This document shows positions 1,469-60,692 of a DNA stretch of 64,000 nt, piece by piece; the first letter of the stretch is position 1, and every line of letters begins with the position of its first letter. The notes below the pieces were generated by a model that was not told the origin of the DNA, ran no database searches, and saw only the letters and a program-made list of their open reading frames with translations. Position numbers and translations under genes: made by a program. The stretch is from positions 198,240-262,239 of the forward strand of contig CALNYG010000005.1 of assembly GCA_942490825.1 (NCBI GenBank), read 5' to 3'. Source of the stretch: Candidatus Moraniibacteriota bacterium (lineage in GTDB: Bacteria > Patescibacteriota > Minisyncoccia > Moranbacterales > GCA-2747515).

Positions 1469-4400
1469 CTATAAATCAGTAACCCGCCCAATCTCATTAA
1501 AACTCGTAGCCCCTTCCAAAACCTTCAAAACACCATCTTGCGTCATCGTCAACATACCATTCTCAATCGCCTTCTTTTTAATTACAGAAGCCATTTCATG
1601 ATGAGAAATCATTATTCGTAACTCATCATCCATTACAAAAATCTCACTAATAACAGTACGACCTTTATAACCAATTCCATTACATTTTTCACAGCCAACA
1701 GGTTCATATAAATAACTCATTTCAGGAATCGGAAAATCAATTTTTGGACTTAAAGTTTCAATAACTTTTTTTATAGCATTTTTTTGCTCATCAGTAATTG
1801 CAACTTTCTTTTTACAATCGCAAAGTTTTCGTATTAACCTTTGAGCGATGAACGCATTAACAGAAGTAGTAATATCATCGGTGCCAATTCCCAAATTTAA
1901 TAATCTTTGAATGGCTCCAACAGCGTCATTTGTATGTAGTGAAGAAATCAACAAATGCCCAGTTAAGGCGGCATTCACTGCAGTTTTAGCAGTTTCATCA
2001 TCACGAATCTCACCAACCAACATTATATCTGGATCTTGACGAAGAAGTGATCGCAAAGCGGACGCAAAAGTATAATCATTTTTCTTATCAATTTGAGTTT
2101 GTAAAATCCCGTCTAACTGATACTCAATTGGATCTTCAATCGTTATAATTTTAACTTCAGAATTTTGAATTTCTTTTAGCACACTGTAAAGAGTAGTGGT
2201 TTTACCAGAGCCAGTTGGTCCAGTATTTAAAATTATTCCATAAGGTTTTTTAGCTTCATTAATAATTTTTTTCAAATTATAATCTCTAATTCCAAGTTTG
2301 CGAATATTTAAATCCACAGTCTCTCTATTCAACAAACGCAATACAACTGTTTCACCAAATCCGCCAGCAATAATTGAAACACGAATGTCCATTTTAAAAT
2401 CATCTTCATCGATAGGTGTTTCATAAACAACTCGGAAACGACTGTCAGAAACTCCTTGCCGAACAGTAGTTGGAATATTACTTAATTCCTTAATCTTTCC
2501 AATTAGTGAAGGGTAGTTAATCAAAGGAATTTCTGCCATATCTTGCAAAACTCCATCAATCCTCATTCTAATAAAAACTTTTTCTTCTTGAGGCTCAATG
2601 TGAATATCACTAGCTCGTAAAAATTTTCCATAAGCGAAGATTAAGGGGAGCATGTCTTGATCGGTGGCACCATTAATTTTTTCATTAACAAAATCTTTTT
2701 TGTGAGATGGCTCTTGCGATATATTCTGTTTTTCAATATCAACAAAAACACCACGAGAAAGTGTTTGAAACATTAAGTCGTCATAAAGTTTTTTAATCAA
2801 ATCACTTTCAGAAGCTACTCGGAAAATTTCTTCCATCGAGGTTACTCCGTTAATAGCTTTTAAAATACCGTCTTGAGTCATGGTAATAAAACCTTCTTCG
2901 ATAGCAGCTCTCATAATTTCGGTTTCACTATCCATGTTTAAAATTAATTGTTCAATTTTTTCGCTAATTGTCAAAACTTCGAAAATACCAATTCGTCCTT
3001 TGTAGCCAGTGTTGTTACATTTTTTGCAACCTTTTGGTTTATACAAATTATAAACTGTTTTTGGAATAGCAACTTTAGCCTTTGGGGATATCAAAGTTAA
3101 CATTTGTAGTATGGTTTCAATAGTTTCTTGAGCAGGTTCATATTTTTCTTTGCAATCACATAGACGTCGAACTAGTCTTTGTGCCATAAAGATATTTGTA
3201 GCTGGTGGAATTAGGGTTGGTTTTACGCCTAACTCTAGTAGGCGGGAAACAGTTGCTGGTGCATTATTTGTATGCAAAGTGGAGAGTACTAAGTGCCCAG
3301 TTAAAGCAGCATTAATGGCTGTATCAGCGGTTTCATCATCACGAATCTCACCAACTAAAATTACATCAGGGTCTTGACGAACGATAGCACGAAGACCTTT
3401 GGAAAAAGTATAATTTTTATTTTTAGAAACTTCAGTTTGGGAAATTCCCTCTATTTCATACTCGATTGGATCTTCAATTGTTATAATTTTCAGATCAGGG
3501 GTTTTAATATAATTTACTAAAGTATAAAGGGTGGTAGTTTTACCAGATCCAGTTGGTCCAGTGGTTAGAATCATTCCAGTATTTTTAGTAGTAGCGTTTT
3601 GGACATCTTCAGCAGCTTTTCCAGTTAATCCTAATTCTGACATGTGAACGTTAACTGATGCATTATCTAAAAGACGCATCACAATTCCTTCAAATTTTTT
3701 TCCAGGAATTGTGCTCACACGAACATCAATGTTACGATGATTATTTATACTAAAAGAAAAGTGACCATCCTGAGCTTCTTTTTTAATATTAATTTTCATT
3801 TTGCTCATGAGTTTAATACGAGAAAGAGCAAGTTTGTAAGTTTTGTGGGGGAAGTTAACAATGTCTTGTAAAACACCATCAATTCTGTAGCGTAAACGCA
3901 CATCTTTTTTTTGTGGCTCAAGATGGATATCACTGACATTTAGTTTTATTGCAGCAGAAAAAAGGATATGTAAGAGTTCAGTGGTCGGCATTGAGTCAAT
4001 TTTATTTTTTAAATCAATCAACTTTCCGATTCCTTCATTAAAATTTTCTAATTCTTCACCAGTAAGCATTAAGCGCATCACATCAATTGAGTCGATAAAA
4101 TAAGCGCCACGGTATTGTCTCAGGGACTGTTCTAAAGATGAGGGAGAGATTACATATAATCTAATGTCCCAGTTGTTTGTTTCTTTTAGTTCATTTAAAA
4201 ATATTAGAGCCTCTTTATTCAATGGATCAGTTGTTCCAACTCGAATTAAACTTCCAGCTCTATAAAAAATTACCAAATTGTGTTTTTCAGAAAGTTCTTG
4301 TTTGATTAAAGATACATCATCACTGTTGATAGGTAATAAGTTTAAATCAGCATAGCCCAGTCCTAATTTTCTAGCAATTCGAGAAGCGTATTCTTCAGAG

Positions 4401-4668: not shown

Positions 4669-5835
4669 ATGAAAAAAGAAATTATAGAAAAAATAGCTAT
4701 TGGAACAGGTGTAGTTTTTTTGACGGCTGTTGTTATGATCTTTTTGATATTGAAAAAAGAGAAAAATGATCTTCAGAATGAATTGGTTATTGATGAAATA
4801 AAGAGCGTTGAAATTGAAGAAGAAAATGATATTAATGAGACAGTAAATGTTGAAGAAGAAAGTGTTGATTCTAAAAAAGTTGGAGATAAAAAAGAATTTT
4901 TTGAAGAAGTTGAAAATTTAGCTAGTTTAGAAAAAGATATTGAACTCAGAGAAATTGAAGAATATGAAGATGAAAAGGAAGAGATAGAGAAAGAGAAAAA
5001 AACAGATAAAAAAGAGGAAAAAATAATAACAGATAATGTTTTAAAAGAAATTGTTAAAGATAAAGAAGGAAAAAGTGAAAAGATTTTGTTTTTCAAGACT
5101 TACTGTCAGACTTTTTATGGTGATAAGTGTACAAAATATCATACAGCCATTCATTCGTTTGACATTAGCGATGAAAGCGTGAAAGAAATATATGATTTTG
5201 GAGATATAGGAGACAAAGGCGGAGGTTTTTTGTTAGAGCCAGATGATAAAAAGGTATTTTTTCAAACCAAAAGTGGTGGAATAACAGAGTTGAATTTATC
5301 TAATAATAGTTTACGATCAATAATACAAATGAATTATCGGAGTAAAGTTACTGATATGCTAATTGAGGATGATAAATTTTTCTATTTATCAGGAAGCTGT
5401 GGGGAAACTGATAAGTCTGATTGCATTTTGCAATATATGGATATGTCTAATAATTTTTTTAATAAATTTATTGCTAGTGATATTAAAAGTAAAGAGCTGA
5501 GACTTAATACAACGGGTTCTATTACTTTAGGAAGTTATAATAAATCTAAAAAATCCTTATATTTTTTAAAGAGTAAAGTAAGGAATTCGATGGACGGTAG
5601 TTTATATAAAGTTAATATTGATAATGGTGATATAAAATTAGTAGGTAAATTTGGTGATGATGGATATGAAAAATCATTTAAGAAGCGTTATTCAATGGAA
5701 GCAGATGATGAACGTGAACATTGTGAAGATTTAGGTATTTCAATTGACTTAGATAAAATAGTTGATGTAAGTTCAAAGGGACGGGATGAGGGGCGGTATA
5801 CTTTCTATAATGTTCTTGGATGTGTTGAAGATTAG
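4669..5835 (+). CDS. Hypothetical membrane-anchored protein with E/K-rich low-complexity linker
   Basis: One N-terminal TM helix (IAIGTGVVFLTAVVMIFLIL), an acidic repeat-like linker, and a C-terminal globular part with no recognised motif. Confidence 0.5.
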   Translation: MKKEIIEKIAIGTGVVFLTAVVMIFLILKKEKNDLQNELVIDEIKSVEIEEENDINETVNVEEESVDSKKVGDKKEFFEEVENLASLEKDIELREIEEYEDEKEEIEKEKKTDKKEEKIITDNVLKEIVKDKEGKSEKILFFKTYCQTFYGDKCTKYHTAIHSFDISDESVKEIYDFGDIGDKGGGFLLEPDDKKVFFQTKSGGITELNLSNNSLRSIIQMNYRSKVTDMLIEDDKFFYLSGSCGETDKSDCILQYMDMSNNFFNKFIASDIKSKELRLNTTGSITLGSYNKSKKSLYFLKSKVRNSMDGSLYKVNIDNGDIKLVGKFGDDGYEKSFKKRYSMEADDEREHCEDLGISIDLDKIVDVSSKGRDEGRYTFYNVLGCVED

Positions 5836-9685: not shown

Positions 9686-9993
9686 TATAATTTTTTGAAG
9701 TGATGTATTTATGGTTTTGTGATTTTTTGTGGGGGATTCTTCACTGCATAAATTTTTTTTATAAAAAATTTATTGCGTTCAGAATGACAGTAAATTTTTT
9801 AGAATTTAGAAAAAGGTTAAATGGTGAAAAGCCCGTGCGGCGAGCACTTTATTTATTTTATGAAATTTTAATGGAGGGGCTTGCGTAAATTTTAAAAATA
9901 GTTTACTATATAGAGAGTATTAATTAACTAATTCTCGCGTAGGGTGGTAGGGTGGTAATTTAGTTTACGACTTTATTGCAGGATTAAATATAT

Positions 9994-11777: not shown

Positions 11778-12209
11778 ATGAAAATGAAAATTGTTACAAT
11801 TGGAAAGCCGAAGCGGGAATTTGAAGGTTTGTTTAATGAATATTTAAAAAGACTTTCGGGTTTTTGTTCAGCTCAGGTTGTGCATATTAAAGAAGGGAAA
11901 AATAATGATGCTCAGATTTTGAGTGAGATTGAGGGTTTTTATTCTGTTTTTTTGGATGAAAAAGGTAAGCAATTTTCGTCGGTTAAATTTTCGGATTTTT
12001 TAGAGAAAAAAAAGAATGAGGGGAATTCTAATTTTGTGTTTGTGATTGGTGGTCCGGATGGTCATTCTGAGGAAGTTAAGAAAAAGGCGGATTTGATTTG
12101 GTCGTTGAGTGAAATGACGTTTCCGCATGATTTGGCGATGGTGATGTTGGCGGAGGGTCTTTATCGGGTGGTTACGATTGGGGCGGGACATCCTTATCAT
12201 CGGGAATAG
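11778..12209 (+). CDS. rlmH: 23S rRNA (pseudouridine1915-N3)-methyltransferase RlmH
   Basis: MKIVTIGKPK .. FVIGGPDGHSEEV .. LSEMTFPHDLAMVMLAEGLYRVVTIGAGHPYHRE. Track start 11697 runs through an intergenic hairpin and was trimmed to ATG 11778. Confidence 0.9.
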   Translation: MKMKIVTIGKPKREFEGLFNEYLKRLSGFCSAQVVHIKEGKNNDAQILSEIEGFYSVFLDEKGKQFSSVKFSDFLEKKKNEGNSNFVFVIGGPDGHSEEVKKKADLIWSLSEMTFPHDLAMVMLAEGLYRVVTIGAGHPYHRE

Positions 12210-12348
12210 ATTGGTAGACTTGTAGAATGTTAGATGGTTAGATTTGTAGAGATATTGTTCTGTAATGTTTTAGGTTGAGTGAAAATTTTTAATTTACGTT
12301 TTTCTGATGTTTTAGTAGTTTAAATAATTTTTCAGTTTGGAAACGTTA

Positions 12349-12543: not shown

Positions 12544-12560
12544 GCCCGTGCGGCGAGCAC
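12544..12560 (+). repeat. GCCCGTGCGGCGAGCAC box (dispersed 17-mer, 14 copies in window)
   Basis: Copies on + at 9831, 12544, 15864, 21404, 26817, 31395, 40359 (GCCTG variant), 47864, 58490 and 60616 (..CAGGCAC variants) and 63099. Copies on - at 29516, 48533, 62249. A degenerate copy sits near 56237. Confidence 0.9.
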
Positions 12561-14447: not shown

Positions 14448-14601
14448 TTTCTAACACAATGCAATAAAACTATAATAACAGTTAGTAACAATTTTGTAAA
14501 TATGTTAAAATTGGAATAGATTGATAGATCTTTAGACGTATAGATTATCAGAGATAAAACTTGTAATGACCATTGTTAATTTAAAGCTTGGTGATTTTCT
14601 G

Positions 14602-14681
14602 TGGGGGATTCTTCACTGCATAAATTTATCTGCGATAAATTTATTACGCCTGTCTGCCGACAAAGGCAGGTTCAGAATGAC
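14602..14681 (+). repeat. GGGGATTCTTCAC / hairpin / TTCAGAATGACA intergenic module
   Basis: Core copies at 9731-9789, 14602-14681, 15773-15829, 21476-21531, 26677-26776, 31252-31330 and 60510-60590 (+), and at 29560-29640 and 60405-60462 (-). The central hairpin is ATAAATTTATC-TGC-GATAAATTTAT or ATAAATTTTTT-TTAT-AAAAAATTTAT, with pairing kept by compensatory changes. Confidence 0.85.
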
Positions 14682-14716
14682 AGGAAATTTTTAGAGAATT
14701 ACATAAAAACAAAAAT

Positions 14717-15589
14717 ATGAAAATAGATCTTAGAAACAATATGTTAGATGAGGCTCAGCAAAAAAAGAGTCAAAAAGTTGGAATGTTCAACGGTCTTTTT
14801 GGTAACAAAAAAAAGATAAAAAAATTAGAAACACATGTAGAGCCTCTTAAAAAAATAGAAGCACCTAAAAAAATAAAAAAACTTTTAGAGCCAGAAGATT
14901 CTTTTCAGTTAAGCGAAGATCCAGGGATCGGACAATCAGATTTTCAATCTAAAAAAGAAGTTCAACAAGAAGAACAATTGCAAGAGCAAGAGCAAACACA
15001 AGATCAAAATCAGGAAGAAGCTATTGGAGAAAAAAATTTTAATCAGACAAAAGGAACTATTGAGCAGGATTATCAGCGAGATGTTGAATATCCTTATCAG
15101 AAAAGTGATTATATAGAAGAGTCACCTGAAAAGATTTTGATTAAGTGGCAAGGACCAGATCATGAAAGTTATCCAAAGAGTAAGAGATGGTATACAATTG
15201 CGGGGTTTGTTTTGGCGAGTTTAGTGACTTATGCAGTACTTACTAACAGCCCACTAACGGCGATTGTTTTTATTTTGATTGGTATTGTTGGGTATATGTA
15301 TTTGGAGAGGGATCCACAACTGACTGATTTTGCAGTTAGTTATGATGGTGTTGTGATTGGTAATGAAGTTTATGAATGGGATGATATGGTTTCTTTTTGG
15401 ATTTTTTATGATCCGCCTCATACTCGAGTTATTAGTTTACATATGAAAGGGAAGTTGATGCCTTATATTCATATTCCTTTGCATCAGATTGATCCAGTTG
15501 ATGTTCGTGAAAAAATGATGGAGTTTGTGCCAGAGATTAAACAGGAGCAGGGAATGGTGGATGTTTTGGAGCGGTTGTTGCATATGTAG
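14717..15589 (+). CDS. Hypothetical membrane protein with Q/E-rich N-terminus
   Basis: Two adjacent TM helices (YTIAGFVLASLVTYAVL / LTAIVFILIGIVGYMYL). No recognised catalytic motif. Confidence 0.5.
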   Translation: MKIDLRNNMLDEAQQKKSQKVGMFNGLFGNKKKIKKLETHVEPLKKIEAPKKIKKLLEPEDSFQLSEDPGIGQSDFQSKKEVQQEEQLQEQEQTQDQNQEEAIGEKNFNQTKGTIEQDYQRDVEYPYQKSDYIEESPEKILIKWQGPDHESYPKSKRWYTIAGFVLASLVTYAVLTNSPLTAIVFILIGIVGYMYLERDPQLTDFAVSYDGVVIGNEVYEWDDMVSFWIFYDPPHTRVISLHMKGKLMPYIHIPLHQIDPVDVREKMMEFVPEIKQEQGMVDVLERLLHM

Positions 15590-15896
15590 GAAATAGATGA
15601 TTAGATTTGTAGAGACATTGCACTGCAATCTCTCTGAACGAGTGAAATTTTTTTAATATGTTTATGTTGGCAGATAGACTTTCAAAAAGTGCAACATGTT
15701 ATTGCGAGGGAAGTGGGGTAATCTTAGTAAGTTTTTTTGATATTTTATTTTTGAAGCTTTGTGAATTTTTGTGGGAGATTCTTCACTGCGTAAATTTTTT
15801 TACAAAAAATTGACTTCGTTCAGAATAACGGGAAACTTTCATAAAAAATTGAATCTTTAAAAAGCCCGTGCGGCGAGCACATTTATTTTTTTAATA

Positions 15897-17510: not shown

Positions 17511-17560
17511 TTAACTTAATCTCTTTTATGGGATTTTTAATTTAGTTAATGATAGTTATC

Positions 17561-18562
17561 ATGAAAAAGGTTTTATTTTCAGGAATGATGTGTGCGGTAA
17601 TGATTGTTTTTTCGTTTGTGATTTCTCAGAAAGATGCTCAAGCTGGAGGTGGTTGGTCTGTTGAAAGTCGTTGCACTGTAGATGGTTGGCAGATGACTCA
17701 GTGTCCAAACCCAATTACAGATATTTTTTCAGATTGTTTTATTTTTTCTGGAGATGTTTTTAATCGAGGGGATCTAGTTTTAATTGTGGATACTATAAAT
17801 GGTGAGTGTCCTGTCTGCAGTAATAAAGTTATTGAAGAGTCAGAGGAGTGTGACGATGGAAATTTGCTAGATGACGACGGTTGTGATTCTGAATGTCAGT
17901 TGGAGCCTTTTTGTGGAGATGGTTATCTTGACGATAATGAAAAATGTGACGATGGAAATATAAATGACGGAGATGGATGTAATTCAACTTGTGAGATTGA
18001 AGAAGTCCTAGAAATTCCAGAAATTCCAGAAATTCCAGAAACTTTAGAAACTCTAGAAATTCCAGAAACTTTAGAAACTCTAGAAATTCCAGAAACTTCA
18101 GAAGATAATGATAAAAACAAGGACAAGGACAAAGACAAGGACAAGGACAAAGACAAGGACAAAAATAAAGAAGGCGACTTTCGAGTAAAAATCAAAACTT
18201 ATGATTGTAATGGAAATGAAGAAAGTAAAAAGATCCAAGGTTCAAAAGTAAAACTATATAAAAGTAGTGGAAAAAAAGCAGATGAAGATAAAACTAATTT
18301 TAAAGGAGAATCTAATTTTTACGATGTCAAAGAAGGGAAATACGAAGTAAAATGTGAAGTTCCTGGATACGTTAGTTTAAAAGATCGAAGTAAAGATTAT
18401 TACAAATCTGGATCAGAAAAAGTTAAAGATGGAAAAAGAGCTCATGAAACTTGTCATCTTATTAAGGCGAGTTGTGATGCAAATGTAAAAGTTGAAAAAT
18501 TAGCACAAACAGGTGGAAGCGTTAAAGATTTAATTCTAAGTATGTTTAATTTTATATTCTAA
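17561..18562 (+). CDS. Secreted Cys-rich-repeat surface protein with C-terminal LAQTG sortase signal
   Basis: Signal peptide MKKVLFSGMMCAVMIVFSFVISQKDAQA. Two CDDGN..DGC..C repeats of the Myxococcus cysteine-rich repeat type, then PEIPE/TLETLEIPE and DKDK tandem repeats. C-terminal LAQTG is followed by a hydrophobic tail. Track start 17549; the second ATG at 17561 is preferred. Confidence 0.7.
   Translation: MKKVLFSGMMCAVMIVFSFVISQKDAQAGGGWSVESRCTVDGWQMTQCPNPITDIFSDCFIFSGDVFNRGDLVLIVDTINGECPVCSNKVIEESEECDDGNLLDDDGCDSECQLEPFCGDGYLDDNEKCDDGNINDGDGCNSTCEIEEVLEIPEIPEIPETLETLEIPETLETLEIPETSEDNDKNKDKDKDKDKDKDKDKNKEGDFRVKIKTYDCNGNEESKKIQGSKVKLYKSSGKKADEDKTNFKGESNFYDVKEGKYEVKCEVPGYVSLKDRSKDYYKSGSEKVKDGKRAHETCHLIKASCDANVKVEKLAQTGGSVKDLILSMFNFIF
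18011..18165 (+). repeat. In-frame tandem repeats (GAAATTCCA / GAAACTTTAGAAACTCTAGAAATTCCA units, then AAGGACAAGGACAAAGAC units)
   Basis: Direct reading. They encode the EIPEIPEIPETLETLEIPETLETLEIPE and DKDKDK.. tracts. Confidence 0.9.
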
Positions 18563-19367: not shown

Positions 19368-19473
19368 GTTATTTTAGTTTTCTTGAAGTTTTTGTGTGGG
19401 GAATATTTCTGGGTTTGGGAATTTGTGGAAATAAAAAGCTATCATTAATTCGATAGTTTTTTGTTTTATGGGC

Positions 19474-19622
19474 TTGACAAGGTTTTTATTCTGTGCTATT
19501 ATTTGGTGTTACGGTATGAGATTGATTAATTTCTATTGGGATGGAAATATGGTTTTTTCTTAATTTTGCAAACTGTCAGATATTATTTAGAGCTTGACAA
19601 AATTAATAAGATATGCTATAAT
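19474..19622 (+). promoter_or_regulatory. Cassette 1 tandem promoters P1 (TTGACA-17-TATTAT) and P2 (TTGACA-17-TATAAT with TGC extended -10)
   Basis: P1 19474-19502; P2 19594-19622. A near-identical copy is at 20386-20534 and a diverged copy at 30939-31086 (-). Confidence 0.75.
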
Positions 19623-19815
19623 ATTTTTATACGATAAGAAATTAAATGTGATTTGTAATTGTAATGTTGTTCTTTGAGATATTTTCATTTTTTCTTCTAT
19701 TTTATTGATTTTTTTGTTCTATATTCAGAAAGTTAAGTTTTAGTTTTTTGAGTTATAGGACAGAAAACAATGATAAATGCAGTGAGATAATATCAATATA
19801 CTGCGGAGAGAAAAG

Positions 19816-20130: not shown

Positions 20131-20385
20131 GCCGTTTTTAACCTTGTCGTAGGGAACACAATACAAGGAAAGTTCTTTTTGAAAAAAAATAGTTATGGAG
20201 ACCTACGCCATGACTACTCACTTTTTTACTAATCTTAAAAAAATTAGTAAAAAAGTTAAACTTTAAGGTTGAATCAATGTCAATGTACGATTCAACCTTA
20301 GTAATTAAGCATTTCAAATTAAATTTTGGAATATTTATAATAATAAAAAACTATCATTTATTTGGTAGTTTTTTGTTTTATGGGC

Positions 20386-20534
20386 TTGACAAGGTTTTTA
20401 TTCTGTGCTATTATTTGGTGTTACGGTATGAGATTGATTAATTTCTATTGGGATGGAAATATGGTTTTTTGTTAATTTTGCAAACTGTCAGATATTATTT
20501 AGAGCTTGACAAAATTAATAAGATATGCTATAAT
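20386..20534 (+). promoter_or_regulatory. Cassette 2 tandem promoters P1 and P2
   Basis: P1 TTGACA 20386-20391 / TATTAT 20409-20414. P2 TTGACA 20506-20511 / TGC-TATAAT 20526-20534. Confidence 0.75.
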
Positions 20535-20723
20535 ATTTTTATACGATAAGAAATTAAATGTGATTTGTAATCGTAATATTGTTCTTTGAGATATTTTCAT
20601 TTTTTCTCTGGTTTATTGATTTTTTTGTTCTATATTCAGAAAGTTAAGCTTTAGTTTTTTGAATAATAGGACAGAAAAATAAACAATAAAAAGTGCGGTT
20701 GAAATACACTGCGGAGAGAAAAA

Positions 20724-21131: not shown

Positions 21132-21743
21132 CCCTACTTAACAGGAGGACGGAACTCAACGAAGTATCGTTCCTCCTCCTCACTTTCTTACTAATCCTAA
21201 AAAGATTGGTCAAAAAGTTGAGAATAAAAAACTATCATTTATTTGGTAGTTTTTTGTTTTGGTTGGGATTGTATTTATAGTTTTCTTAAAATTTCAAAGT
21301 GAAGATTTCGGATAAATTAATTTCTATCTATAAAACGCGATAAATCGACGTTTCTACAAAAAAATATATTTTCCGGAATGACAGGGATGAGAGATGATGA
21401 AAAGCCCGTGCGGCGAGCACTTTTTAAAATATTAGAAAAATTTATACTGTATTTGTAGTATCAGAAAAACTTACTGGGATTCTTCACTTCATAAATTTAT
21501 CTGCGATAAATTTATTACGTTCAGAATGACGTGGTGGGAGAAATTGACTTTTCTGCTTTAAAATGCGAAAATTAAAATAGTAATTTATTAATTAGAGAAA
21601 TTAGTTTTTTGGCTATGAAGATACATATGCGTTTCATTTAATTTTATTAGAAAATGTATATGTAGATTTATAGCGATTCGTTTAATTTAGAAACGCGATG
21701 AATCGCGTTTCTACAGAAATAAAAATTATTTTTCTTAACAAAT

Positions 21744-23948: not shown

Positions 23949-25401
23949 TGTCACTTACCAATGATAATGTCATACCAGGTTACCAATAGAAATGTCATAC
24001 CTATTAAAATTATGTTAGTTTTACATGTTAACATTTAAAAAACATGAAAAACTATGCAAGATACAATAATCATGACAAATAAGGAATCTCAAAGGTATGA
24101 AATCATAAATAATTTAATAAACAATAAGATAAACGGAACACAAGCATTCAGACAATTAAATTTATCAGTCAGACAAACTAAAAGGTTAAAAGCTAAAGTA
24201 AACAGAAAAGGAATACAAGGAATAATTCATAAAAGCAGGGGGAAAGAAAGTAATAGAAAATTAGATGAAAAATTAAAAAAGAAAATCATAAAAACAATCA
24301 AAGAAAACTATTCAGATTTTTCATCACAATTAACTTATGAAAAATTAAATGAAGTTCATGAAATTAAAATAAGTTACACTTCGACGAGAAGAATTAGAAT
24401 AAACGAAGGTTTAAGTACAGTCAAAAAAAGAAAACAAAATAAAAAATACTTCTCACAAAGAGAAAGAAAAGAACATTATGGAGAATTAGTTCAATTCGAT
24501 GGTTCATATCATGATTGGCTTGAAAATGAAGAAGAGCAATGCCTGTTACTTGCAGTAGACGATGCTACTAGCGAGATAACTCCAGAACTTGATAAAAATG
24601 AAGGTATACAAGCAGTATTTAATTTTTGGAAAGAATACGTACAAGAAAAAGGAAGACCATTAGCTATTTATCTAGATAAATTCAGTACTTACAAAGTAAA
24701 TCACAAAAATGCAACGGACAATCAAGAATTCAAGACACAATTTCAAAGAGCTATGAAAGAATTAGATATACAAGTAATTTTTGCTAATACGCCTCAAGCC
24801 AAGGGAAGAGTAGAAAGAATGAACGAAACTTTACAAGACAGAATGATCAAAGAAATGCGACTAGCTAAAATAAATAGTATCGAACAAGCCGATGAATTTA
24901 TTAAAGAAAAATTTACTCCAGAATTTAATAAAAAATTCAATGTTCCCGCAAAGAAAAAAGGAGACCTACACAGAAAACTAACTAAGCAAGAAAAAGATAA
25001 ATTAAATAATATTTTCTCAATTAAAAGCACTAGAAAAATAAGGAATGATTTTGTAGTTCAATATAAAAATAGATATTTTCAATTAAATGAAATACAACCA
25101 ACTACAGTTTACAAAAAGGATGAAGTAATTATAGAAGAACATTTAGATGATTCAATTCATATTTCTAAAAAAGATAAATATTTAAGTTTTAAAGAATTAC
25201 CACATAAACCCAAAAAAGAAAATGAACTAAAATTACCAGCTATCACTAAAAGAAAATCAGATTACACTCCACCAGCAGATCATCCTTGGAGAAGCTACCA
25301 ATTTAAAAAAGAAAAATTAAAAGCTCAAAAATTAATTAAATTCTAAAGGTATGACATTTCTAAAGAAAACAAAGGTATGACATTTCTATTGGTAGTTGAC
25401 A
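23949..25401 (+). mobile_element. Intact insertion sequence, ISNCY/IS1202-like (rve-type DDE transposase), 1453 bp
   Basis: Terminal IRs TGTCACTTACCAAT / TGTCAACTACCAAT (12/14). Subterminal repeats AATGTCATACC occur twice at each end. A perfect 15-bp direct repeat GTTTTTTTGATTGAC flanks it at 23934-23948 and 25402-25416. Confidence 0.85.
24054..25346 (+). CDS. DDE (rve/integrase-core) transposase with N-terminal HTH
   Basis: LVQFDGSYHDW (D), IYLDKFSTY (D), AKGRVERMNETLQDR (E). Confidence 0.85.
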   Translation: MQDTIIMTNKESQRYEIINNLINNKINGTQAFRQLNLSVRQTKRLKAKVNRKGIQGIIHKSRGKESNRKLDEKLKKKIIKTIKENYSDFSSQLTYEKLNEVHEIKISYTSTRRIRINEGLSTVKKRKQNKKYFSQRERKEHYGELVQFDGSYHDWLENEEEQCLLLAVDDATSEITPELDKNEGIQAVFNFWKEYVQEKGRPLAIYLDKFSTYKVNHKNATDNQEFKTQFQRAMKELDIQVIFANTPQAKGRVERMNETLQDRMIKEMRLAKINSIEQADEFIKEKFTPEFNKKFNVPAKKKGDLHRKLTKQEKDKLNNIFSIKSTRKIRNDFVVQYKNRYFQLNEIQPTTVYKKDEVIIEEHLDDSIHISKKDKYLSFKELPHKPKKENELKLPAITKRKSDYTPPADHPWRSYQFKKEKLKAQKLIKF

Positions 25402-26524: not shown

Positions 26525-26596
26525 ATAGATCGGTAGACTTTTAGAATATAGACAGTTAGATTGTGTAGAGACATTGCACTGCAATGTCTTGGAAAT
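26521..26596 (+). repeat. 3'-end module: TAGA-rich tract plus GTAGA-flanked palindrome (GTAGAGACATTGCACTGCAATGTCT)
   Basis: Starts at the stop codon of the upstream gene. Related copies begin at about 12207, 15587, 16024, 31100, 39795, 53815, 56072, 57681, 59314 and 60299. Confidence 0.85.
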
Positions 26597-26722: not shown

Positions 26723-26764
26723 CCTGTCTGCCCTGTCTGCCGACAGGCAGGCGACAAAGGCAGG
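26723..26764 (+). repeat. Self-nested mini-hairpin CCTGTCTGC[CCTGTCTGCCGACAGGCAGG]CGACAAAGGCAGG
   Basis: Single copies lie at 14648-14669, 29571-29595 (-) and about 60556-60580. It is inserted at other positions at 31261-31280 and 62367-62387. A larger relative is at about 8324-8374. Confidence 0.8.
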
Positions 26765-26925
26765 TTCAGAATGACATGATACTTATAGAGTTTCAAAAAA
26801 TGTTGAATGGTGAAAAGCCCGTGCGGCGAGCACTTTTTATCTTTCTGACTAATTTTATATTTTTTAAGAAAGAATATGCTATAATAATAATATTAAAAAA
26901 TATTCTTAAAAACTAAAATAAAAAT

Positions 26926-29435: not shown

Positions 29436-30004
29436 TCGGTTGTTTGTAAAGGGTAATAGGTAATGGTAACACTGGGTTTTTTTTGTGTCAAATTTTTTTA
29501 TTTTTAATGTTTTTTGTGCTCGCCGCACGGGCTTATGATACATAATTTTAAAAACTTCCTGTCATTCTGAACCTGCCTTTGTCGGCAGACAGGCGGATTT
29601 ATTTTTTTGTTAGAAAAAATAAAGAAGTGAAGAATCCCCTACGGATTATCATAAATCTTTAAAATTAAAATATCAGAAAAACTTATTGAGATTGCCACGT
29701 CTCTCCTTATAGTCGTTCCTCGCAATGACGTGTATAAAAACAAAAAACCACTGACTTTATGTTAGTGGTTTTTTATACTCTATTAAAATTCAAATTAGTT
29801 TAAATTTTAAATTGAGTGGCTTTATCTATATCGTGTTAGATAAAGCCGTGATGAATCTTTGTTCATCGTTGATTTTTTGCGTTTACACGTAACGCTTTTC
29901 TCTCTAATTTTTTTAAGAATTAGAGAGTGGGTGAGAGGAGAACATATAACAAATAATTATCATCCTCTTCCTCTCCTTTGTTTTTTGAAAAGAGTTTAAG
30001 AGAT

Positions 30005-30733: not shown

Positions 30734-30938
30734 TGTTGTTCCTCCTGCGGAATTTTAACATATTTTATTGACAAGGATTTGCTTGATTTTCATCTAAAAA
30801 ACCAACAAAGTTAGTTACTTAAAGAAAACCAAGTCATAAATTCATCAATAAAACAAAAGAAAAACTCTCTTAATCTCTCTAATTTTTAAGAAACAATTAC
30901 GATTACAAATCTCAATGAATTTCTTATCGTATGAACAT

Positions 30939-31086
30939 ATTATAGCATATCTTATTAATCTTGTCAAGTCTTGAAAATAATCCTCAAAACTTATAAAAAT
31001 TAACAAATAACTATAATTGCTACAATTCAGTTTTGAATAACTTCATTGCAACACCAAATAATAGCACGAAATAAAAATCTTGTCAA
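30939..31086 (-). promoter_or_regulatory. Cassette 3 tandem promoters P1 and P2 (minus strand)
   Basis: P2 is TTGACA (rc 30962-30967), a 17-nt spacer and TGC-TATAAT (rc 30939-30947). P1 is TTGACA (rc 31081-31086), a 17-nt spacer and TATTAT (rc 31058-31063). The 5' leader block ATACGATAAGAAATT..GATTTGTAATCGTAAT is conserved with cassettes 1 and 2. Confidence 0.7.
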
Positions 31087-31542
31087 GCTTTGAAAATAGA
31101 CGTTTAGTATTTTAGATGGGTAGACTTTTAGACAATTAGATTTGTAGAGACATTGCACTGCAATGTTTTTGGGTAGATTGATAATTTTATGTAACGAAGA
31201 ATTTCAGTGAGTTTTTCTAATATTTAATTTTCAAGTTTTGTGATTCTCTGTGGGGGATTCCTGTCTGCCGACAGGCAGGCTTCACTGCGTAAATTTTTTT
31301 TATAAAAAATTTACTTCGTTCAGAATGACAGAAAATTTTTTAGGGGTTCGCAGTAGAAATGAATTGCAATTCATTTCTATAGATGTGTATCATAGCCCGT
31401 GCGGCGAGCACTTTATTAATTTTTAAAATTTTCATTTATCATACGGATAGGCACGAGACATTATTTTAAAATTTATTTTGAAAGTTTTGATTAAATGTTA
31501 TACTTTTAAAGTAACTATAATTTTTTCAATTTTAATAAAATC

Positions 31543-34191
31543 ATGACAAAAAATAAACCAAAAAAATTACTTCTTCTTGATGGTAACGCAATTATTCATC
31601 GGGCTTTTCACGGAATTCCACCGCTCACTAATCAGGCGGGAATACAATTAAATGCCGTTTACGGATTTGCGGCTACTTTTCTTAATGTTTTAGAAAAATT
31701 TCAACCGGATTATATTGTGGCTACTTTTGATTTGCCGGGAAAAACATTTCGGCATGAAAAATTTTCTGATTATAAGGGAAATCGAAAAGAAACGGCTGAT
31801 GATTTGATTCCGCAATTTTCTTTAGTGAAAGACGTGATGAAAGCTTTTAATATCCCGATTTTAGAAAAAGCGGGATTTGAGGCTGATGATATTATTGGGA
31901 CATTATCTGTTCAGGCGAGCGAGAAAAATTTGGAAACTATTATTGTTACCGGAGATAAAGATACTTTTCAGCTTGTTGATGATAAGGTGAAAGTTTTTAC
32001 CATGTCGCGTGGGTTGAATGATATGTTACTTTACGATCGAGAAATGGTGAAAGACAAAATGGGAGTTTTGCCAGAGCAAGTGATTGAATATAAGGGTTTG
32101 CGTGGTGATGCGAGTGATAATATTCCTGGGGTAAAAGGTGTGGGTGATAAAACGGCTTTGACTTTGTTGCAAGAATATCCGACGTTGGAAAAAATTTACG
32201 AAAATTTAGACAATATTAAAGAGAGTGTTCGGAAGAAATTAATTGCTGATGAGAAAAAAGCTTTTTTGTCTCGGGAGTTGGGAATTATTTTAACGAATGT
32301 TTCAGTGAAACTTGATTTGAAAAAAGCGGATATTGAGCAGATTTCATTTGATGGTGCACGGAAAATTTTTCAAGAATTTGAATTCAAGCGATTATTAAAG
32401 AGATTACCTGACAATGTTGAGTTTGAAGAAAAAAATAAAAATGCTAATCAGTTTGCTGTTTTGGATTCTTCTAATTATAAACAAGGGGTCATGACCCCTT
32501 GTTCAATGGGTGTTTTTCCAGATGTGGAAGATTCTATTTTTTACGGTTTAGGTTTGGCGACGGAAAAAGAAAATTTTTATTTACCTTTCGATAAAAAAAA
32601 TAAAGAAATTTTTCAGGAATTTTTGTTTGATGAAAAAATTAAAAAAACTTTTTTTGATGTGAAAAATTTATTGCACATTCTTGATAAAAATGATTTAACT
32701 TTAGAAAAAATTGATGCGGATGTTTTGTTGGAAGCTTACGTTTGTCGTACGGGGAAGAAAATTATGTTGGATGATTTGATCTTTGAAGTTACGGGGCGAG
32801 TGGTTAGTCCTGAAAAGAAAAATAATCAGATGGCTTTGAATTTGCGAGATGAGAAAAAAGCACAGCAGGAAACTTCTCAGAAAGCGAAAGATATTTTATT
32901 GATTCACAATTTTTTTACGCAAGAAATCGAGTCTATTATTGCAAAACAAGACAAAAAAAATAATGTTAAAACTTTATTGGAAAAACTGGAAATGCCATTG
33001 GTGCAAATTTTATTTAACATGGAAAAAAATGGGGTGGCTTTTGATAAAAATATTTTTGAAGAAATTGCAAAAGATTTCAATAAAAAAATTAGCGGATTGG
33101 AAAAGGATATTTATGAAATGGCGGGCGAGGAGTTTAATATTAATTCGACAAAACAGTTGCGAGTGATTCTTTTTGAAAAATTGAAAATTGATACGACTAA
33201 TATTAAAAAAACAAAAACGGGTTTTTCTACGGCTTCAAATGAGTTGGAAAAAATTAAATTGATGCACCCGATTGCTCAAAAGATTGAGGAGTATCGGGAA
33301 TTGTTTAAATTGAAAACGACTTATGTTGACGCGTTACCAAAATTAGCTGATGAAAATAATCGGATTCACACGACTTTTAATCAGGCGATTACAGCAACGG
33401 GTCGACTTTCATCTTCTGAACCGAATTTACAAAATATTCCGATTCGAACTGAGACTGGGCGACGTTTGCGAAAAGGTTTTGTGGCGGAAAAGGGTTATAA
33501 ATTGGTGAGTGCTGATTATTCTCAAATTGATTTACGATGTATTGCACATGTTAGTCAGGACAAAAATTTGATAGAGGCTTTTCAAAATAACATGGACATT
33601 CATACTTTTACAGCGGCGACGGTGAGGGGAAAGGATGTTTCTGAAGTTAGTAAAACTGAGCGAAGTGCGGCGAAGGAGTTGAATTTTGGTTTGATTTACG
33701 GAATGGGTTCTTTTGGTTTTGCGCGGGCGGCGGATATTAGTGTTGAAGAGGCGAAAAATTTTATTAAAAAATATTTTGAGAAATTTCCTGAGGTGAAAAA
33801 TTATATTGAGGAGACTAAAAGGGAAGTTGAGGAGAATGGTTTTGTGGAAACTGAATTGGGACGGCGACGAAATGTTCCGGAAATTAAATCGAAGAATTTT
33901 CAGTTGCGGGCGATGGGGGAACGGATGGCGGTGAATATGCCGATTCAGGGTTTGGCGGCGGATATTATGAAGTTGGCGATGATTGGTGTTGCTGATTATT
34001 TACGAGATAATTTTAAATCAGCTGAAGCGAGGATGATTTTGCAGATTCATGATGAGGTTATTTTGGAGGTTCAGGATGATTTGGTTGAAGTGGTTTCGGA
34101 AGAGATTAGAAAGATTATGGAGGGGGTTTATGTTTTTTCTGTTCCTTTGGTGGTTGATGTTGCGGTGGGGGTTGATTGGGGAGAGTTGTAA
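31543..34191 (+). CDS. polA: DNA polymerase I
   Basis: 882 aa. 5'-3' exonuclease N-terminus (LLLLDGNAIIHRAFH, GDKDTFQL); polymerase motifs A (LVSADYSQIDLRC), B (RSAAKELNFGLIYG) and C (LQIHDEV). Confidence 0.97.
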   Translation: MTKNKPKKLLLLDGNAIIHRAFHGIPPLTNQAGIQLNAVYGFAATFLNVLEKFQPDYIVATFDLPGKTFRHEKFSDYKGNRKETADDLIPQFSLVKDVMKAFNIPILEKAGFEADDIIGTLSVQASEKNLETIIVTGDKDTFQLVDDKVKVFTMSRGLNDMLLYDREMVKDKMGVLPEQVIEYKGLRGDASDNIPGVKGVGDKTALTLLQEYPTLEKIYENLDNIKESVRKKLIADEKKAFLSRELGIILTNVSVKLDLKKADIEQISFDGARKIFQEFEFKRLLKRLPDNVEFEEKNKNANQFAVLDSSNYKQGVMTPCSMGVFPDVEDSIFYGLGLATEKENFYLPFDKKNKEIFQEFLFDEKIKKTFFDVKNLLHILDKNDLTLEKIDADVLLEAYVCRTGKKIMLDDLIFEVTGRVVSPEKKNNQMALNLRDEKKAQQETSQKAKDILLIHNFFTQEIESIIAKQDKKNNVKTLLEKLEMPLVQILFNMEKNGVAFDKNIFEEIAKDFNKKISGLEKDIYEMAGEEFNINSTKQLRVILFEKLKIDTTNIKKTKTGFSTASNELEKIKLMHPIAQKIEEYRELFKLKTTYVDALPKLADENNRIHTTFNQAITATGRLSSSEPNLQNIPIRTETGRRLRKGFVAEKGYKLVSADYSQIDLRCIAHVSQDKNLIEAFQNNMDIHTFTAATVRGKDVSEVSKTERSAAKELNFGLIYGMGSFGFARAADISVEEAKNFIKKYFEKFPEVKNYIEETKREVEENGFVETELGRRRNVPEIKSKNFQLRAMGERMAVNMPIQGLAADIMKLAMIGVADYLRDNFKSAEARMILQIHDEVILEVQDDLVEVVSEEIRKIMEGVYVFSVPLVVDVAVGVDWGEL

Positions 34192-38843: not shown

Positions 38844-39806
38844 ATGAATAAACAAAACATTAAACAACCAGAAGGCGGATTGCTCCAGTCAAAAAATTGG
38901 GCAGATTTTTTACGTGCTGAAAAAAAAGAAGTTGTTGAAATTGGAGAAGAAGAAAAACTTTTTGGTGTGGCGAATAAATTGCCTGTAGCAGGAGAATATT
39001 TATACATTCCACGATTAACTTTCCAAAATAATTCAAATCCTGAAAAAACTTTGCGAGAAATTGAGAAAAAAGTTTTAGAAAAAAAATTTGGTTGGTTGCG
39101 AACGGATCTTTTGAATAAGAATGATTTGAAAAGAGTTAAAGAAAATTTAAATTATAAAGTTATCAAAGCACCACATGATATGCAGCCGAAGGATCATTTT
39201 ATTATTGATGTTTCTTTTTTGGGTGAAGAGGAATTGTTAAAAAACATGAAATCGAAAACTCGTTATAATATTAGATTGGCGGAGAAAAAAGGTGTAAAGA
39301 TTTTTGCTAGTCGAGATAAGAATCATTTGCGAGATTTTTTTAATTTAGTGAATAAAACAGCTAAAAGAAAAAATGTTAATTTTCATGATTTTAAACATTA
39401 TGAAAAAATGTTTGATGAATTACCTGAAGATTGTATTGAGCTTTATTTAGCGGAGTATGAGGGAAAAATTATTGTGGCAAATATTGCGACTTTTTATAAT
39501 GGTGTGGCGACTTATTTGCATGGCGGGATGGATGGGGAATATCGTAAATTGATGGCACCGTTTTTGTTGCAATGGAGAATGATTCGGGATGCGAAAGAAG
39601 AGGGTTGTGTGTGGTATGATTTTGGTGGTGTTTTTCCTGATTCTGATGACAGTGGAAAGAGTGGAATCACTAGATTTAAAATGAGTTTTTCTCCGAAGAT
39701 GGAAGTTTTTGAAACGATGGGGACTTATGATGTTGTTTTTTCTCCGGTTAAATATTGGATTTATAAGTTTTTGCAGAGAGTTAAGGGATTAATTGGTAGA
39801 TTGTAG
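38844..39806 (+). CDS. FemAB-family peptidoglycan interpeptide-bridge aminoacyltransferase
   Basis: KSKTRYNIRLAEKKGV, YLAEYEGKIIVANIATFYNGVATYLHGG, LLQWRMIRDAKEEGCVWYDFGGV. Confidence 0.8.
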   Translation: MNKQNIKQPEGGLLQSKNWADFLRAEKKEVVEIGEEEKLFGVANKLPVAGEYLYIPRLTFQNNSNPEKTLREIEKKVLEKKFGWLRTDLLNKNDLKRVKENLNYKVIKAPHDMQPKDHFIIDVSFLGEEELLKNMKSKTRYNIRLAEKKGVKIFASRDKNHLRDFFNLVNKTAKRKNVNFHDFKHYEKMFDELPEDCIELYLAEYEGKIIVANIATFYNGVATYLHGGMDGEYRKLMAPFLLQWRMIRDAKEEGCVWYDFGGVFPDSDDSGKSGITRFKMSFSPKMEVFETMGTYDVVFSPVKYWIYKFLQRVKGLIGRL

Positions 39807-39902
39807 ATACATTGCATTGCAATGTCTTAGGTTGGGTAAAAAATTTTCAATTTACGAATTTACAATTTTCAAACAATTTTTAATGATTTATTTAATAAAG
39901 AT

Positions 39903-40349: not shown

Positions 40350-40404
40350 TTTTAAAAAGCCTGTGCGGCGAGCACTTTTATTTTTTAAATTAAAATTAAT
40401 CATC

Positions 40405-42339: not shown

Positions 42340-43612
42340 AGCTAAGTATTGAAATTTGTTAAATTCTATGCTTAAATATTAAGTTATTTTAATAATTTAA
42401 TATTTTAAAAATGCAAAAAAAAGAGATTAAAAAAATATTCAATTTAGAAGGATATATTTTAGATAAATTTGAAGAAAAAAATGATAAAATAATTTTACAT
42501 TGTCATTTACAAAAAGAATTCATTTAAATTAATAAAAGAGCTAAGTCAAATAATTAATAATAACAGATATAGAATAATTGCTCATTCTATGTTTGAAAAT
42601 ATAATAGTTTTTATAGCTATGACTCAAAGAAGATTTTATTTTTCTAAACATAAAAAGAAACTTCGGGAATCTTTACCTCAAGTTAAAAAAGGGCAACAAA
42701 TGAGCACAGCTTTTAAAAAACTCTGTCATAGAATTAAGAGAAACCACATATAGCGGACTAGCTAGATCTAGACAGATAAGCATTATGTCGGCTCTGAGAA
42801 TGATTGATGAAATGGTAAATACTTCATTAATTTGAGATAAATCTATTCAAAGAATTGGAATGGATGGCAAAGGAGTTAGCAAAAGAAAACAAGTTTTTAA
42901 CATTACTAATTTAATTGATAATGAGGTGATAGGTGTTCTACCAAATTTATCACAAAAAGAATTGCTGAAAGAATTATTAAAAATTGATTTAAAATTTAGA
43001 TTAGCAGTTAAAGAAGTATGTATTGATATGGACTCTTTTTTTCCAGCTATTATTAAAGAATGTTTTCCTAATGCGGTTATTGTGATTGATCATTTTCATA
43101 TAATTCAGTGGGCTGTCTTTTTATTAAAAGAACAAAAGAAAGTTTTTCAAGACATCAACAATGAATCTTATAAAATAAATAAATTACTGATGATACCTAC
43201 ACACAAATTAACAATTGAAGAATTTAATAAATTAGAAAAAGTTTTTGTTAAAGTTCCTAAGTTAAAACAAAGTTGGAAAATAATTCATCAACTCAGAAAA
43301 GTATATTGGAAAAATAACAGAAAAGAAGCTCAAAAACAATTAAAATATGTCATCAGTCTTTGTAAAACTTCAGAATCAAAATATATGAAAGATTTGGCTA
43401 ATACATTAACAAGATGGTTTGATGAAATATTAAATTATTATTTATCTAAAACAACTAATGCTTATACTGAAGGAATTCATAATCATTTTGAAAGAATTAA
43501 AAGGAATCATTTTGGGATTAGAAATGTTGAACGTTTTTGTAAAAGATTATTATTTTGTGTTCTTCCGATGACAATTTTCTTAAATTTAGTTGCCCAAAGA
43601 TGTTAAAGAGCC
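42317..43612 (+). mobile_element. ISL3-family insertion sequence, copy A (decayed), 1296 bp
   Basis: 23-bp perfect terminal IR GGCTCTTTAACATCTTTGGGCAA. 8-bp target duplication GTAATTTA at 42309-42316 and 43613-43620. Confidence 0.9.
42412..43606 (+). pseudogene. ISL3 transposase pseudogene (copy A)
   Basis: The N-terminal part is broken by stops and frameshifts (MQKKEIKKIFNLEGY..QKEFI*). The C-terminal 248 aa are intact (42860-43606) with VIVIDHFHIIQ and TNAYTEGIHNHFERIKRNHFGIRNVERF motifs. Confidence 0.85.
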
Positions 43613-60671: not shown

Positions 60672-60692
60672 GCTTATGTTGATGAATGAAAG

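Follow-up and report, generated by a model that had tools for sequence, protein, structure and literature searches.

A 64-kb stretch of a Candidatus Moranbacteria genome (Patescibacteria, or candidate phyla radiation (CPR); hereafter the window, 31.6% GC and 77% coding) carries repeated copies of a GC-rich 17-mer, GCCCGTGCGGCGAGCAC, which we call the box. The box is a real, selected intergenic signal that recurs at the same places in related genomes, and it most likely marks the boundary between transcription units; the promoter-element reading put forward in a preliminary description of the window is only partly supported. The conservation across species makes the observation more robust than the window sequence alone allowed.

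At up to three mismatches the window holds 13 copies (10 exact, one with a single mismatch and two with two), and no match arose across 100 dinucleotide shuffles, which excludes chance. The 14 copies first reported are these 13 together with a 16-nt variant that has lost one loop base (GCCCGTGCGGC-AGCAC, 62249–62264, minus strand). That count was incomplete: a fifteenth, decayed copy, GCTTATGCGACGAACAC, lies at 56239–56255, and its five differences from the box are all GC-to-AT transitions. Both two-mismatch copies (58490 and 60616) are the same variant, GGCAGGCAC; compared with variants, exact copies are strongly over-represented. Every one of the 15 copies lies between genes (with the start of the ppaC-like gene set to 29435); their strand ratio is 12:3 and their density one per 4.3 kb (one per 4–6 kb overall). 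A further 18 copies were found in ~104 kb from four related assemblies (L121, L122/L137, L124/L139/L141 and L140). The copies in the window are as follows.

9831–9847, plus strand: exact box at the 3' end of a type-A composite repeat, in a divergent spacer, 146 nt before rpsO
12544–12560, plus strand: exact box, 27 nt before the ATG of a SpoU/TrmH-like gene; the L140 and L141 orthologs lie 22–23 nt from the ATG
15864–15880, plus strand: exact box; the -35 hexamer (TTGACC) of the tRNA-Arg promoter follows 16 nt further on
21404–21420, plus strand: exact box upstream of pnp; conservation between the window and L140 sets in exactly here
26817–26833, plus strand: exact box at the 3' end of a composite repeat; open reading frame (ORF) 26926 follows after 92 nt
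29516–29532, minus strand: exact box, co-oriented with the minus-strand genes, 24 nt before the TTGACA-17-TACCAT promoter of a DHH-family gene (start 29435)
31395–31411, plus strand: exact box upstream of polA, with the -35 hexamer at 66 nt; the L139 ortholog is solo and 7 nt from its -35 hexamer
40359–40375, plus strand: one-mismatch box (C4T), solo, 9 nt past the stop of a NUDIX gene and 29 nt before the ATG of a Mur ligase gene
47864–47880, plus strand: exact box at the 3' end of a type-B composite repeat; lemA follows after 62 nt
48533–48549, minus strand: exact inverted box, 8 nt past the lemA stop; the lemA strand reads GTGCTCGCCGCACGGGC and then TTTTT
56239–56255, plus strand: decayed box GCTTATGCGACGAACAC; the L122 ortholog at 5979 has one mismatch
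58490–58506, plus strand: box variant GGCAGGCAC (GA-to-AG swap), solo, ~75 nt past a canonical terminator; a gene resembling type IV secretion system (T4SS) pilins begins 40 nt on
60616–60632, plus strand: box with the GA-to-AG swap; the nusA -35 hexamer is 9 nt on, and the L121 and L122 orthologs are 32 and 21 nt from theirs
62249–62264, minus strand: 16-nt inverted box variant, 2 nt past the nusA stop; degenerate orthologs in L121 and L122
63099–63115, plus strand: exact box, 29 nt past the stop of the membrane-protein gene 'X' and abutting a 26-nt palindrome; the ATG of a DHH gene is 28–29 nt on

Pfam largely bore out the gene names originally given (S15, SpoU/TrmH, PNPase, PolA, Mur ligase, LemA, NusA and T4SS-type pilins), with the refinements that the 'pilin' is of the T4SS/VirB2 type and that 'ppaC' is merely a DHH-family protein. 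Ten of the 12 box-to-gene distances first given were also right. The exceptions are the ppaC-like gene, placed at 29 nt, for which the start at 29435 leaves a gap of 81 nt with the conserved TTGACA-17-TACCAT promoter between, and the DHH-like gene, placed at 81 nt, whose start at 63144 leaves a gap of 29 nt and whose N-terminus (MKHIIGHRNPDTD) is conserved in four genomes. The two inverted copies described directly after the lemA and nusA stops, each followed by TTTTTGGG, were found as stated.

Searches with NusA, PolA and TrmH assign the window to Candidatus Moranbacteria; an exact look-up of LemA matched no record. The box is confined to close relatives. Box-bearing genomes share 80–85% (NusA), 77–90% (PolA) and 83–88% (TrmH) identity with the window, while sequences with NusA identity of 78% or less (L125, L126/L127, L128 and L129) had no copy in 58.6 kb, even at five mismatches. 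Its presence in close and absence from more distant Moranbacteria make the box a genus-level novelty of one Moranbacteria clade. Scanning a genome collection with a degenerate pattern gave, among the matches listed, only chance ones in GC-rich genomes; two metagenome scans, of a collection in which the box clade is not represented, gave 0 and 7 (chance) matches, and viral contigs gave one chance match. An Rfam 15 search of the window returned only four tRNAs at the gathering threshold and nothing over the box or its composite repeat at E ≤ 1, excluding a known RNA family. No description of the box was found in the literature on the sequence itself, on CPR intergenic repeats or on CPR uptake sequences.

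The genomes share eight orthologous box sites. Six precede a gene, namely nusA, DHH, the TrmH-like gene (three genomes), pnp, the second DHH-family gene (DHH2, minus strand) and polA; the other two follow one, as an inverted box directly after the nusA stop and a box behind a solute-binding protein gene. Boxes at these sites are 82–100% identical, mostly 100%; the exceptions, both at 67%, are the site behind the solute-binding protein gene, where the box is decaying, and one pair among the inverted copies downstream of nusA, which is degenerate. By contrast, identity over the 40 nt upstream ranges from 0.37 to 0.88 against a non-orthologous baseline of 0.53 ± 0.07, and is at that baseline in all but two pairs, while the 40 nt downstream are only partially conserved. 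In the pnp and DHH2 alignments similarity sets in exactly at the box. The polA boxes of the window and L139 were left unaligned by MAFFT because of their unequal distances (66 and 7 nt) to the conserved promoter. Boxes have also been gained or lost: L124 has none before nusA, L121 and L122 have none before DHH (where L124 keeps it), and L137 has none before polA. The inverted box downstream of nusA persists in three genomes. A neutral GC-rich 17-mer would decay at 31% GC, as the copy at 56239 illustrates, so the box appears to be held by purifying selection or an equivalent drive, and a neutral relic is excluded.

What is conserved is longer than the 17-mer, and comprises AAAA, the box and ~12 T-rich bases. 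Every copy has an A at -1, within an A-rich run from -4 to -1; G and C are missing from +1 to +6, and a T-rich stretch from +1 to +13 gives way to an A-rich one. These constant flanks, which the preliminary description does not mention, suggest a terminator-like unit. At least five T residues occur in the first 8 nt after 12 of 14 window copies, compared with a frequency of 0.21 among intergenic octamers. The sequence of this T block varies, which indicates that it is selected as a composition rather than inherited, and it is absent at strong promoters that have no box. Within the 17-mer all positions are about equally conserved. The sense strand can form a 4-bp hairpin (GUGC-GGCGA-GCAC, -4.3 kcal/mol at 37 °C) and the antisense strand one of 5 bp including one G-U pair (GCUCG-CCGCA-CGGGC, -4.8 kcal/mol) followed by U5; at 15 °C, a plausible in-situ temperature, these reach -7 to -8 kcal/mol. 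A terminator scanner flags the inverted copies, with their GCUCG/CGGGC hairpin and U5, as terminator-like.

Box positions 1–11 also form an MwoI-type site (GCN7GC), one per box in all copies, and in so AT-rich a genome the boxes would hold a large share of such sites. A protein with an MwoI_N domain adjoins a DNA methylase in L137 (16873–18819).

The arrangement of the box relative to genes is polar. In spacers of at least 250 nt its 3' side points toward the nearer gene end at ~13 of 14 independent loci. Copies that run against the neighbouring genes are found exclusively past gene 3' ends (five loci: nusA, lemA, ClpP and iPGM in L122, and L137 7415); these inverted copies are more often degenerate, with 1 of 7 exact versus 16 of 26 for the others. 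Solo boxes in the window are those at 40359, 48533, 58490 and 63099; in short spacers (40359, 63099, L121 9570, L124 4112 and 7926, and L141 51) solo boxes lie 9–29 nt past a stop and 22–35 nt ahead of the next start. The strong orientation toward gene 5' ends that had been proposed is only partly supported. The ratio of strand and gene orientation in the window is 12:3; solo copies are oriented only ~10:5, and boxes are spread over divergent, tandem and convergent spacers in proportion to the share of these in intergenic DNA. Most window genes follow one another on the plus strand, which places these copies behind the preceding gene as well.

We tentatively favour the idea that the box is a clade-specific, sequence-recognised polar boundary cassette (a terminator or insulator) between transcription units, as the best among several readings of which none is probable by itself. 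RNA polymerase arriving from the 5' side would be halted, or its transcription attenuated, by the box together with the U tract. On this 5' side would lie the 3' end of the upstream gene and the repeat-laden spacer, and the control region of the next gene would start immediately 3'. Instead of depending on a generic stem-loop, recognition would be sequence-specific, with help from a clade-specific factor that acts either on the DNA or on the nascent RNA; we infer both the blocking of transcription and the involvement of a factor, the latter from a hairpin that is marginal although all 17 positions are conserved. The same combination of a weak stem and a fixed sequence contradicts a pure intrinsic terminator, while variable position, copies at gene 3' ends and the T block contradict a pure promoter element. 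A boundary accommodates most of the observations, namely the A/T flanks, the polarity, the build-up of repeats on the 5' side, the post-stop positions in both orientations and the onset of conservation, and for several genes the box is the sole terminator-like signal ahead of the next promoter. It also comes close to the insulator factor that had been offered as one option at the outset.

Several observations weigh against a boundary cassette. The box hairpins, at -4 to -6 kcal/mol, compare poorly with ~-15 kcal/mol for the terminators at 1414, 28224, 37538 and 58382, and are no more stable than those of shuffled sequences (z = -0.2). Among 13 distinct box sequences neither candidate helix showed covariation beyond shuffles, variation being too low. 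The copy at 29516 has no usable U tract, and its L139 ortholog (8553) likewise, although both are exact. Boxes 22–29 nt before an ATG would require read-through or leaderless promoters with only a -10 hexamer. Genes X and DHH stand adjacent with no box in L121 and L122, several boxes lie in divergent spacers with no upstream gene to terminate, and a canonical terminator already precedes some copies (58490, 29516 and L122 16431). The 64-kb window also yielded no candidate for the binding factor.

In a more specific form of the boundary reading, the box would be the site of a dedicated factor enforcing orientation-dependent termination or insulation, a bacterial counterpart of mTERF or Reb1/TTF-I. 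This is an improbable proposal; such a factor may have evolved in a CPR lineage whose spacers were overrun by small repeats. The sites of mTERF, the Pol I Sal box (TTF-I/Reb1) and Tus-Ter resemble the box in being asymmetric, ~17–23 bp long and fixed in sequence, active in one orientation, located where one unit ends and directly ahead of the next promoter, and associated with a T-rich stretch. They differ in being eukaryotic, organellar or replication-related, so that the likeness is a functional analogy and not membership. Two further candidates were set aside. The membrane-protein family 'X' was rejected as the box-binding factor as a multi-pass membrane protein, and no guide-like copy of either box half occurs in the window, which leaves an RNA-guided target (TIGR-Tas) a far-fetched prospect.

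Promoters identified by consensus and cross-species conservation (nusA, DHH2, polA, pnp and tRNA-Arg) all lie downstream of the box, and the -35 positions given earlier for tRNA-Arg (15897) and nusA (60642) hold. Distances from the box to the -35 hexamer, with orthologs where available, are as follows.

nusA: 9, 21 and 32 nt
DHH2: 24 and 13 nt
polA: 66 and 7 nt
pnp: 123 and 112 nt
tRNA-Arg: 16 nt

Having no fixed value, these distances argue against an UP element or a classical activator site, either of which the sequence comparison makes unlikely. Of the original suggestion that the box is a protein-binding site or a promoter-upstream element, what stands is a discrete unit that occurs alone, appears to be under purifying selection and has promoters downstream; the variable distance speaks against a promoter-upstream element. 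Inspection gave no match to a sigma-54, ECF, CIRCE, LexA, DnaA or boxA-like site.

The box could still be the operator of a clade-specific global DNA-binding regulator that activates or represses the adjacent downstream promoter according to position, which we consider unlikely. An asymmetric site of 17–21 bp with every position conserved fits recognition by a protein, as does its conservation upstream of orthologous promoters (nusA, DHH2, polA and pnp), its co-orientation with the downstream gene at ~17 loci and the greater degeneracy of inverted copies. In four of five independent comparisons, moreover, spacers in orthologs differ by 12, 11, 11 and 11 nt, about one helical turn; such shifts could reflect either a face-of-helix constraint or slippage in phased A/T tracts (a weak 10–11 nt AA/TT periodicity of the box flanks, for which there was no control, was not used). 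Set against an operator are a distance and phase to the -35 hexamer that vary from gene to gene, with the polA orthologs 59 nt apart, and the near-consensus -35 and -10 hexamers of the box-linked promoters. The nusA promoter and its conserved leader hairpin are present with no box in L124 and L128, where the promoter presumably works, and many strong promoters in the window have no box. An operator also leaves unaccounted for the T block, the copies 22–29 nt from an ATG and after gene 3' ends, and the inverted copy kept downstream of nusA in three genomes.

The nusA promoter (TTGACA-18-TATTAT) is followed by a leader hairpin and T run, GAAAGATTCGGGTCTGAGAGACGCGAATTTTTT (60642–60712), in five genomes (the window, L121, L122, L124 and L128). 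This hairpin looks like an attenuator, possibly for NusA autoregulation.

Nearly leaderless mRNAs had been predicted at three genes from close spacing to the start codon. The box does lie only 22–29 nt from the ATG of the Mur ligase gene (murE), of DHH in two genomes and of the TrmH-like gene in three, which leaves no room for a -35 hexamer, and none is recognisable. At these genes either the box would be read through or nearly leaderless promoters with only a -10 hexamer would be used. TAAAAT-like hexamers occur in some of the spacers, at positions that are not conserved.

Such spacing is part of the case for an mRNA element, either a 5'-terminal or intercistronic stabiliser hairpin or an upstream mini-ORF (M-x-x-S-P-C-G-E-H-F...), which we regard as highly improbable. 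In ~10 of 15 window copies an in-frame ATG lies at exactly -10, and in flank family 1 the box is immediately preceded by a -10-like TATCAT, from which transcripts would begin at the GUGC hairpin. In orthologs (upstream of trmH, L140 and L141) neither the ATG nor the TATCAT is conserved, and a mini-ORF or leader peptide was rejected on the former ground. At five or more loci a conserved promoter lies downstream of the box, which places the box outside that mRNA; there is, besides, the lack of covariation and of any Rfam match noted above. A portable promoter, with the box as -10 element, discriminator or 5'-terminal hairpin, was likewise rejected: it fits flank family 1 only and is contradicted by the conserved downstream promoters.

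Many boxes belong to a larger arrangement. Nine window spacers contain an oriented, modular composite of ~300 nt with a fixed order, from a TAGAnnnn array beginning at the upstream stop through a GTAG-headed hairpin, a long hairpin module and an extension to the box. A representative is given below.

15578–15880, plus strand: TAGA array, GTAG hairpin, GGGGGATTCTTCAC...TTCAGAATGACA hairpin module, extension, box

The long hairpin module is of two types, GGGGGATTCTTCAC...GTTCAGAATGACAGG or CCGGA...TCCGGCATGACA. In the window, 11 of the 15 boxes either terminate a composite or come right after a hairpin module of one, so part of the strand bias is inherited from the composite, whereas the composite at 14505–14716 lacks a box. 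In relatives the box often stands alone at composite sites (upstream of nusA in L121, of polA and DHH2 in L139 and of trmH in L141), so that the box is what stays constant and the modules have been added 5' of it, where the other repeats pile up.

The preliminary description had held that its interpretation would be refuted if the box were always embedded in a larger mobile repeat whose insertion preference alone explained the bias, and the 11 of 15 composite-associated copies go some way in that direction, with the solo copies pointing the other way. The box could be the terminal module of a selfish miniature repeat (of a miniature inverted-repeat transposable element (MITE), BOX or small dispersed repeat (SDR)-like kind) that has no host function and whose bias reflects tolerated insertions. 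Besides the composite, this would suit a genome with an unusual wealth of small repeats (among them a 20-nt GC palindrome inside other repeats and a palindrome in frame within polA), presence and absence that vary among close relatives, and the one decaying copy at 56239. We nevertheless find it quite improbable. In most comparisons orthologous boxes keep their identity under AT pressure at 31% GC while their flanks are randomised, and gene conversion is inefficient over a match as short as 17 nt. The box also persists in relatives with the remainder of the composite gone (L121 9570 and L139 9915), and no terminal inverted repeats, target-site duplications or inverted doublets were seen: neither box nor composite has inverted termini, and the filled and empty sites upstream of DHH show no duplication.

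The remaining possibility is a genomic tag kept by molecular drive with no role in transcription, similar to the DNA uptake sequence (DUS) or uptake signal sequence (USS) in a naturally competent CPR lineage, or to a nucleoid or topology site of the repetitive extragenic palindrome (REP) kind; it is distinctly unlikely. Like the DUS of Neisseria and the USS of Pasteurellaceae, the box is over-represented in its exact form, restricted to a narrow clade in the manner of a dialect, and maintained at orthologous sites, with copies now and then gained or lost; it further shares placement after genes and T tracts with these signals, and AT-rich flanks and the hexamer GTGCGG with USS. The AT-rich flanks match the USS of Haemophilus and the post-stop placement the DUS of Neisseria. 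The proportional distribution over spacer types and the weak orientation of solo copies are also what a tag would give. Uptake signals, however, have cores of 9–12 nt, occur about once per kb and frequently within genes, are orientation-neutral and often form inverted pairs; the box is longer (17–21 nt), oriented 12:3 in the window, rarer (one per 4–6 kb), absent from coding DNA and single, with inverted pairs never found. Its strictly polar layout relative to other repeats and gene ends, and the one-sided T block, are further difficulties for a tag.

By behaviour the box would sit with the short dispersed intergenic repeats (REP and bacterial interspersed mosaic elements (BIMEs), BOX, DUS/USS), though in the comparisons run here it departs from what defines each family. 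The REP/BIME elements of enterobacteria and the REPINs of Pseudomonas are likewise short, GC-rich and extragenic, lie at transcription-unit ends and form mosaics with other motifs; they number in the hundreds, are transcribed in 3' UTRs, serve as binding sites for host proteins, and can influence both termination and the stability of mRNA. A REP is, by contrast, an imperfect palindrome of 20–40 nt with a 5' GTAG that often forms inverted doublets and is mobilised by a RAYT transposase, whereas the box is essentially non-palindromic and single. It forms no stable palindromic hairpin, begins with GCCC rather than GTAG and has no inverted doublet within 600 nt. Pfam scans of ~40 window ORFs found no Y1 transposase (RAYT); they found an ISL3-family transposase fragment (42860–43606) and an ORF with an HTH_32 and a weak rve_3 (integrase core) match (24054–25346), so the window does carry mobile-element genes. 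Pneumococcal BOX (boxA-boxB-boxC) and the Correia elements of Neisseria are, like the composite, modular, 100–300 nt long, fixed in module order and near gene starts, and can modulate the expression of neighbouring genes. They have no sequence similarity to the composite, which has no terminal inverted repeats and of which only the terminal 17-mer, found also by itself, is strongly conserved. Intrinsic terminators, including weak ones assisted by NusA/NusG, share with the box an A tract, a GC-rich core, a U tract, a position past the stop codon (2–29 nt for solo and inverted boxes, apart from 29516 and the divergent spacers) and ahead of the next promoter, and bidirectional potential; the 4–5-bp stem of the box, its fixed sequence rather than structure and the copies with no U tract set it apart, and it has no stem-loop as stable as the terminators of this genome. 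The SDRs of cyanobacteria (Elhai et al. 2008, cited in PMC3116915) are ~20-nt units that spread intergenically, nest and have no recognisable transposase. They differ from the box in being mostly palindromic and are not known to be conserved at orthologous positions; the 20-nt palindrome CCTGTCTGCCGACAGGCAGG described below fits them better.

The modules on the 5' side of the box, and other repeats in the window, have features of their own. The TAGAnnnn arrays consist of 4–6 units with an 8-nt period, carry TAGs in all three frames and run from the upstream stop codon. In form they resemble the UAG-repeat arrays bound by HutP or TRAP, with a different spacing.

12207–12250, 14513–14552, 15585–15610, 26541–26565 and 31104–31150: TAGAnnnn arrays, 5' module of the composite
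56063–56106, 57677–57716, 59305–59357 and 60304–60343: further TAGAnnnn arrays, 5' module of the composite

The adjoining REP-like hairpin, GTAGAGACATTGCACTGCAATGTCT, has a 5' GTAG and a 10-bp palindrome, with six copies at no more than three mismatches, all on the plus strand; it is this element, not the box, that matches the REP/RAYT definition.

15609–15633, 26565–26589, 31144–31168, 39803–39827, 56106–56130 and 60344–60368, plus strand: GTAGAGACATTGCACTGCAATGTCT hairpin (also at 12245 and 53829)

The palindrome CCTGTCTGCCGACAGGCAGG, GC-rich and 20 nt long, is exact at 26732–26751 and 31260–31279, with variants near 29590, 60560 and 62360. It is inserted in other repeat modules, splitting GGGGGATT|CTTCAC at 31260, and resembles a very small mobile element that sits inside larger repeats. 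A 26-nt palindrome family, GAACAAGGGGTCATGACCCCTTGTTC, occurs at 32478–32503, within polA, and at 63067–63094. The polA copy is in frame and codes for YKQGVMTPCS in a variable linker, at the place where L139 has a variant (EQWVATHCL); in this it resembles the Rickettsia palindromic elements, which insert into genes. Hairpin modules of the form GATTC..stem..GAATGACA are also present in distant Moranbacteria (L126 12809), and L124 has stand-alone 94-aa GIY-YIG ORFs (3252–3536 and 5176–5460) where the window spacers hold repeat modules.

A cassette with two near-consensus promoters (..gggcTTGACAAGGTTTTTATTCTGTGCTATTAT.. and ..gagcTTGACAAAATTAATAAGATATGCTATAAT..) ~120 nt apart is found at 19421–19714 and 20333–20626 and, inverted, at ~30930–31100. 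The direct copies are 93% identical over 294 nt; the cassette may be a portable double promoter. Within genes, tandem repeats occur at 17977–18112 (9-nt period, AGAAATTCC-type) in a surface-protein-like ORF (17549–18562) and at 56791–56898 (12-nt period, CAAGCAGTAACC) in ORF 56307–57404. Family 'X', whose genes lie next to several boxes, is a multi-copy family of small multi-pass membrane proteins ending in ..CLKHPFYNQKKVK. In the box clade its members are interspersed among housekeeping genes (nusA-X-DHH-X-tig-X-clpP), and several copies are followed by a palindrome and a box.

62566–63069 in the window; L121 11679; L122 11688; L124 3651, 5572 and 7451; L141 upstream of trmH: family 'X' members

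Almost nothing is known of how transcription is organised and regulated in CPR bacteria, and a selected cis element of 17–21 nt offers a concrete handle on it. If the density in the window holds genome-wide, the box would be present in a few hundred copies per genome, and could serve as bait for its binding factor, as a marker in the mapping of 3' ends and transcription start sites, and for phylogenetic profiling. Should it turn out to be either an uptake signal or a polar terminator recognised by its sequence, Patescibacteria would have no earlier example; were it merely a domesticated REP-like module, it would document an unusually repeat-rich CPR genome, 77% coding, and the way in which repeats are arranged around its genes.

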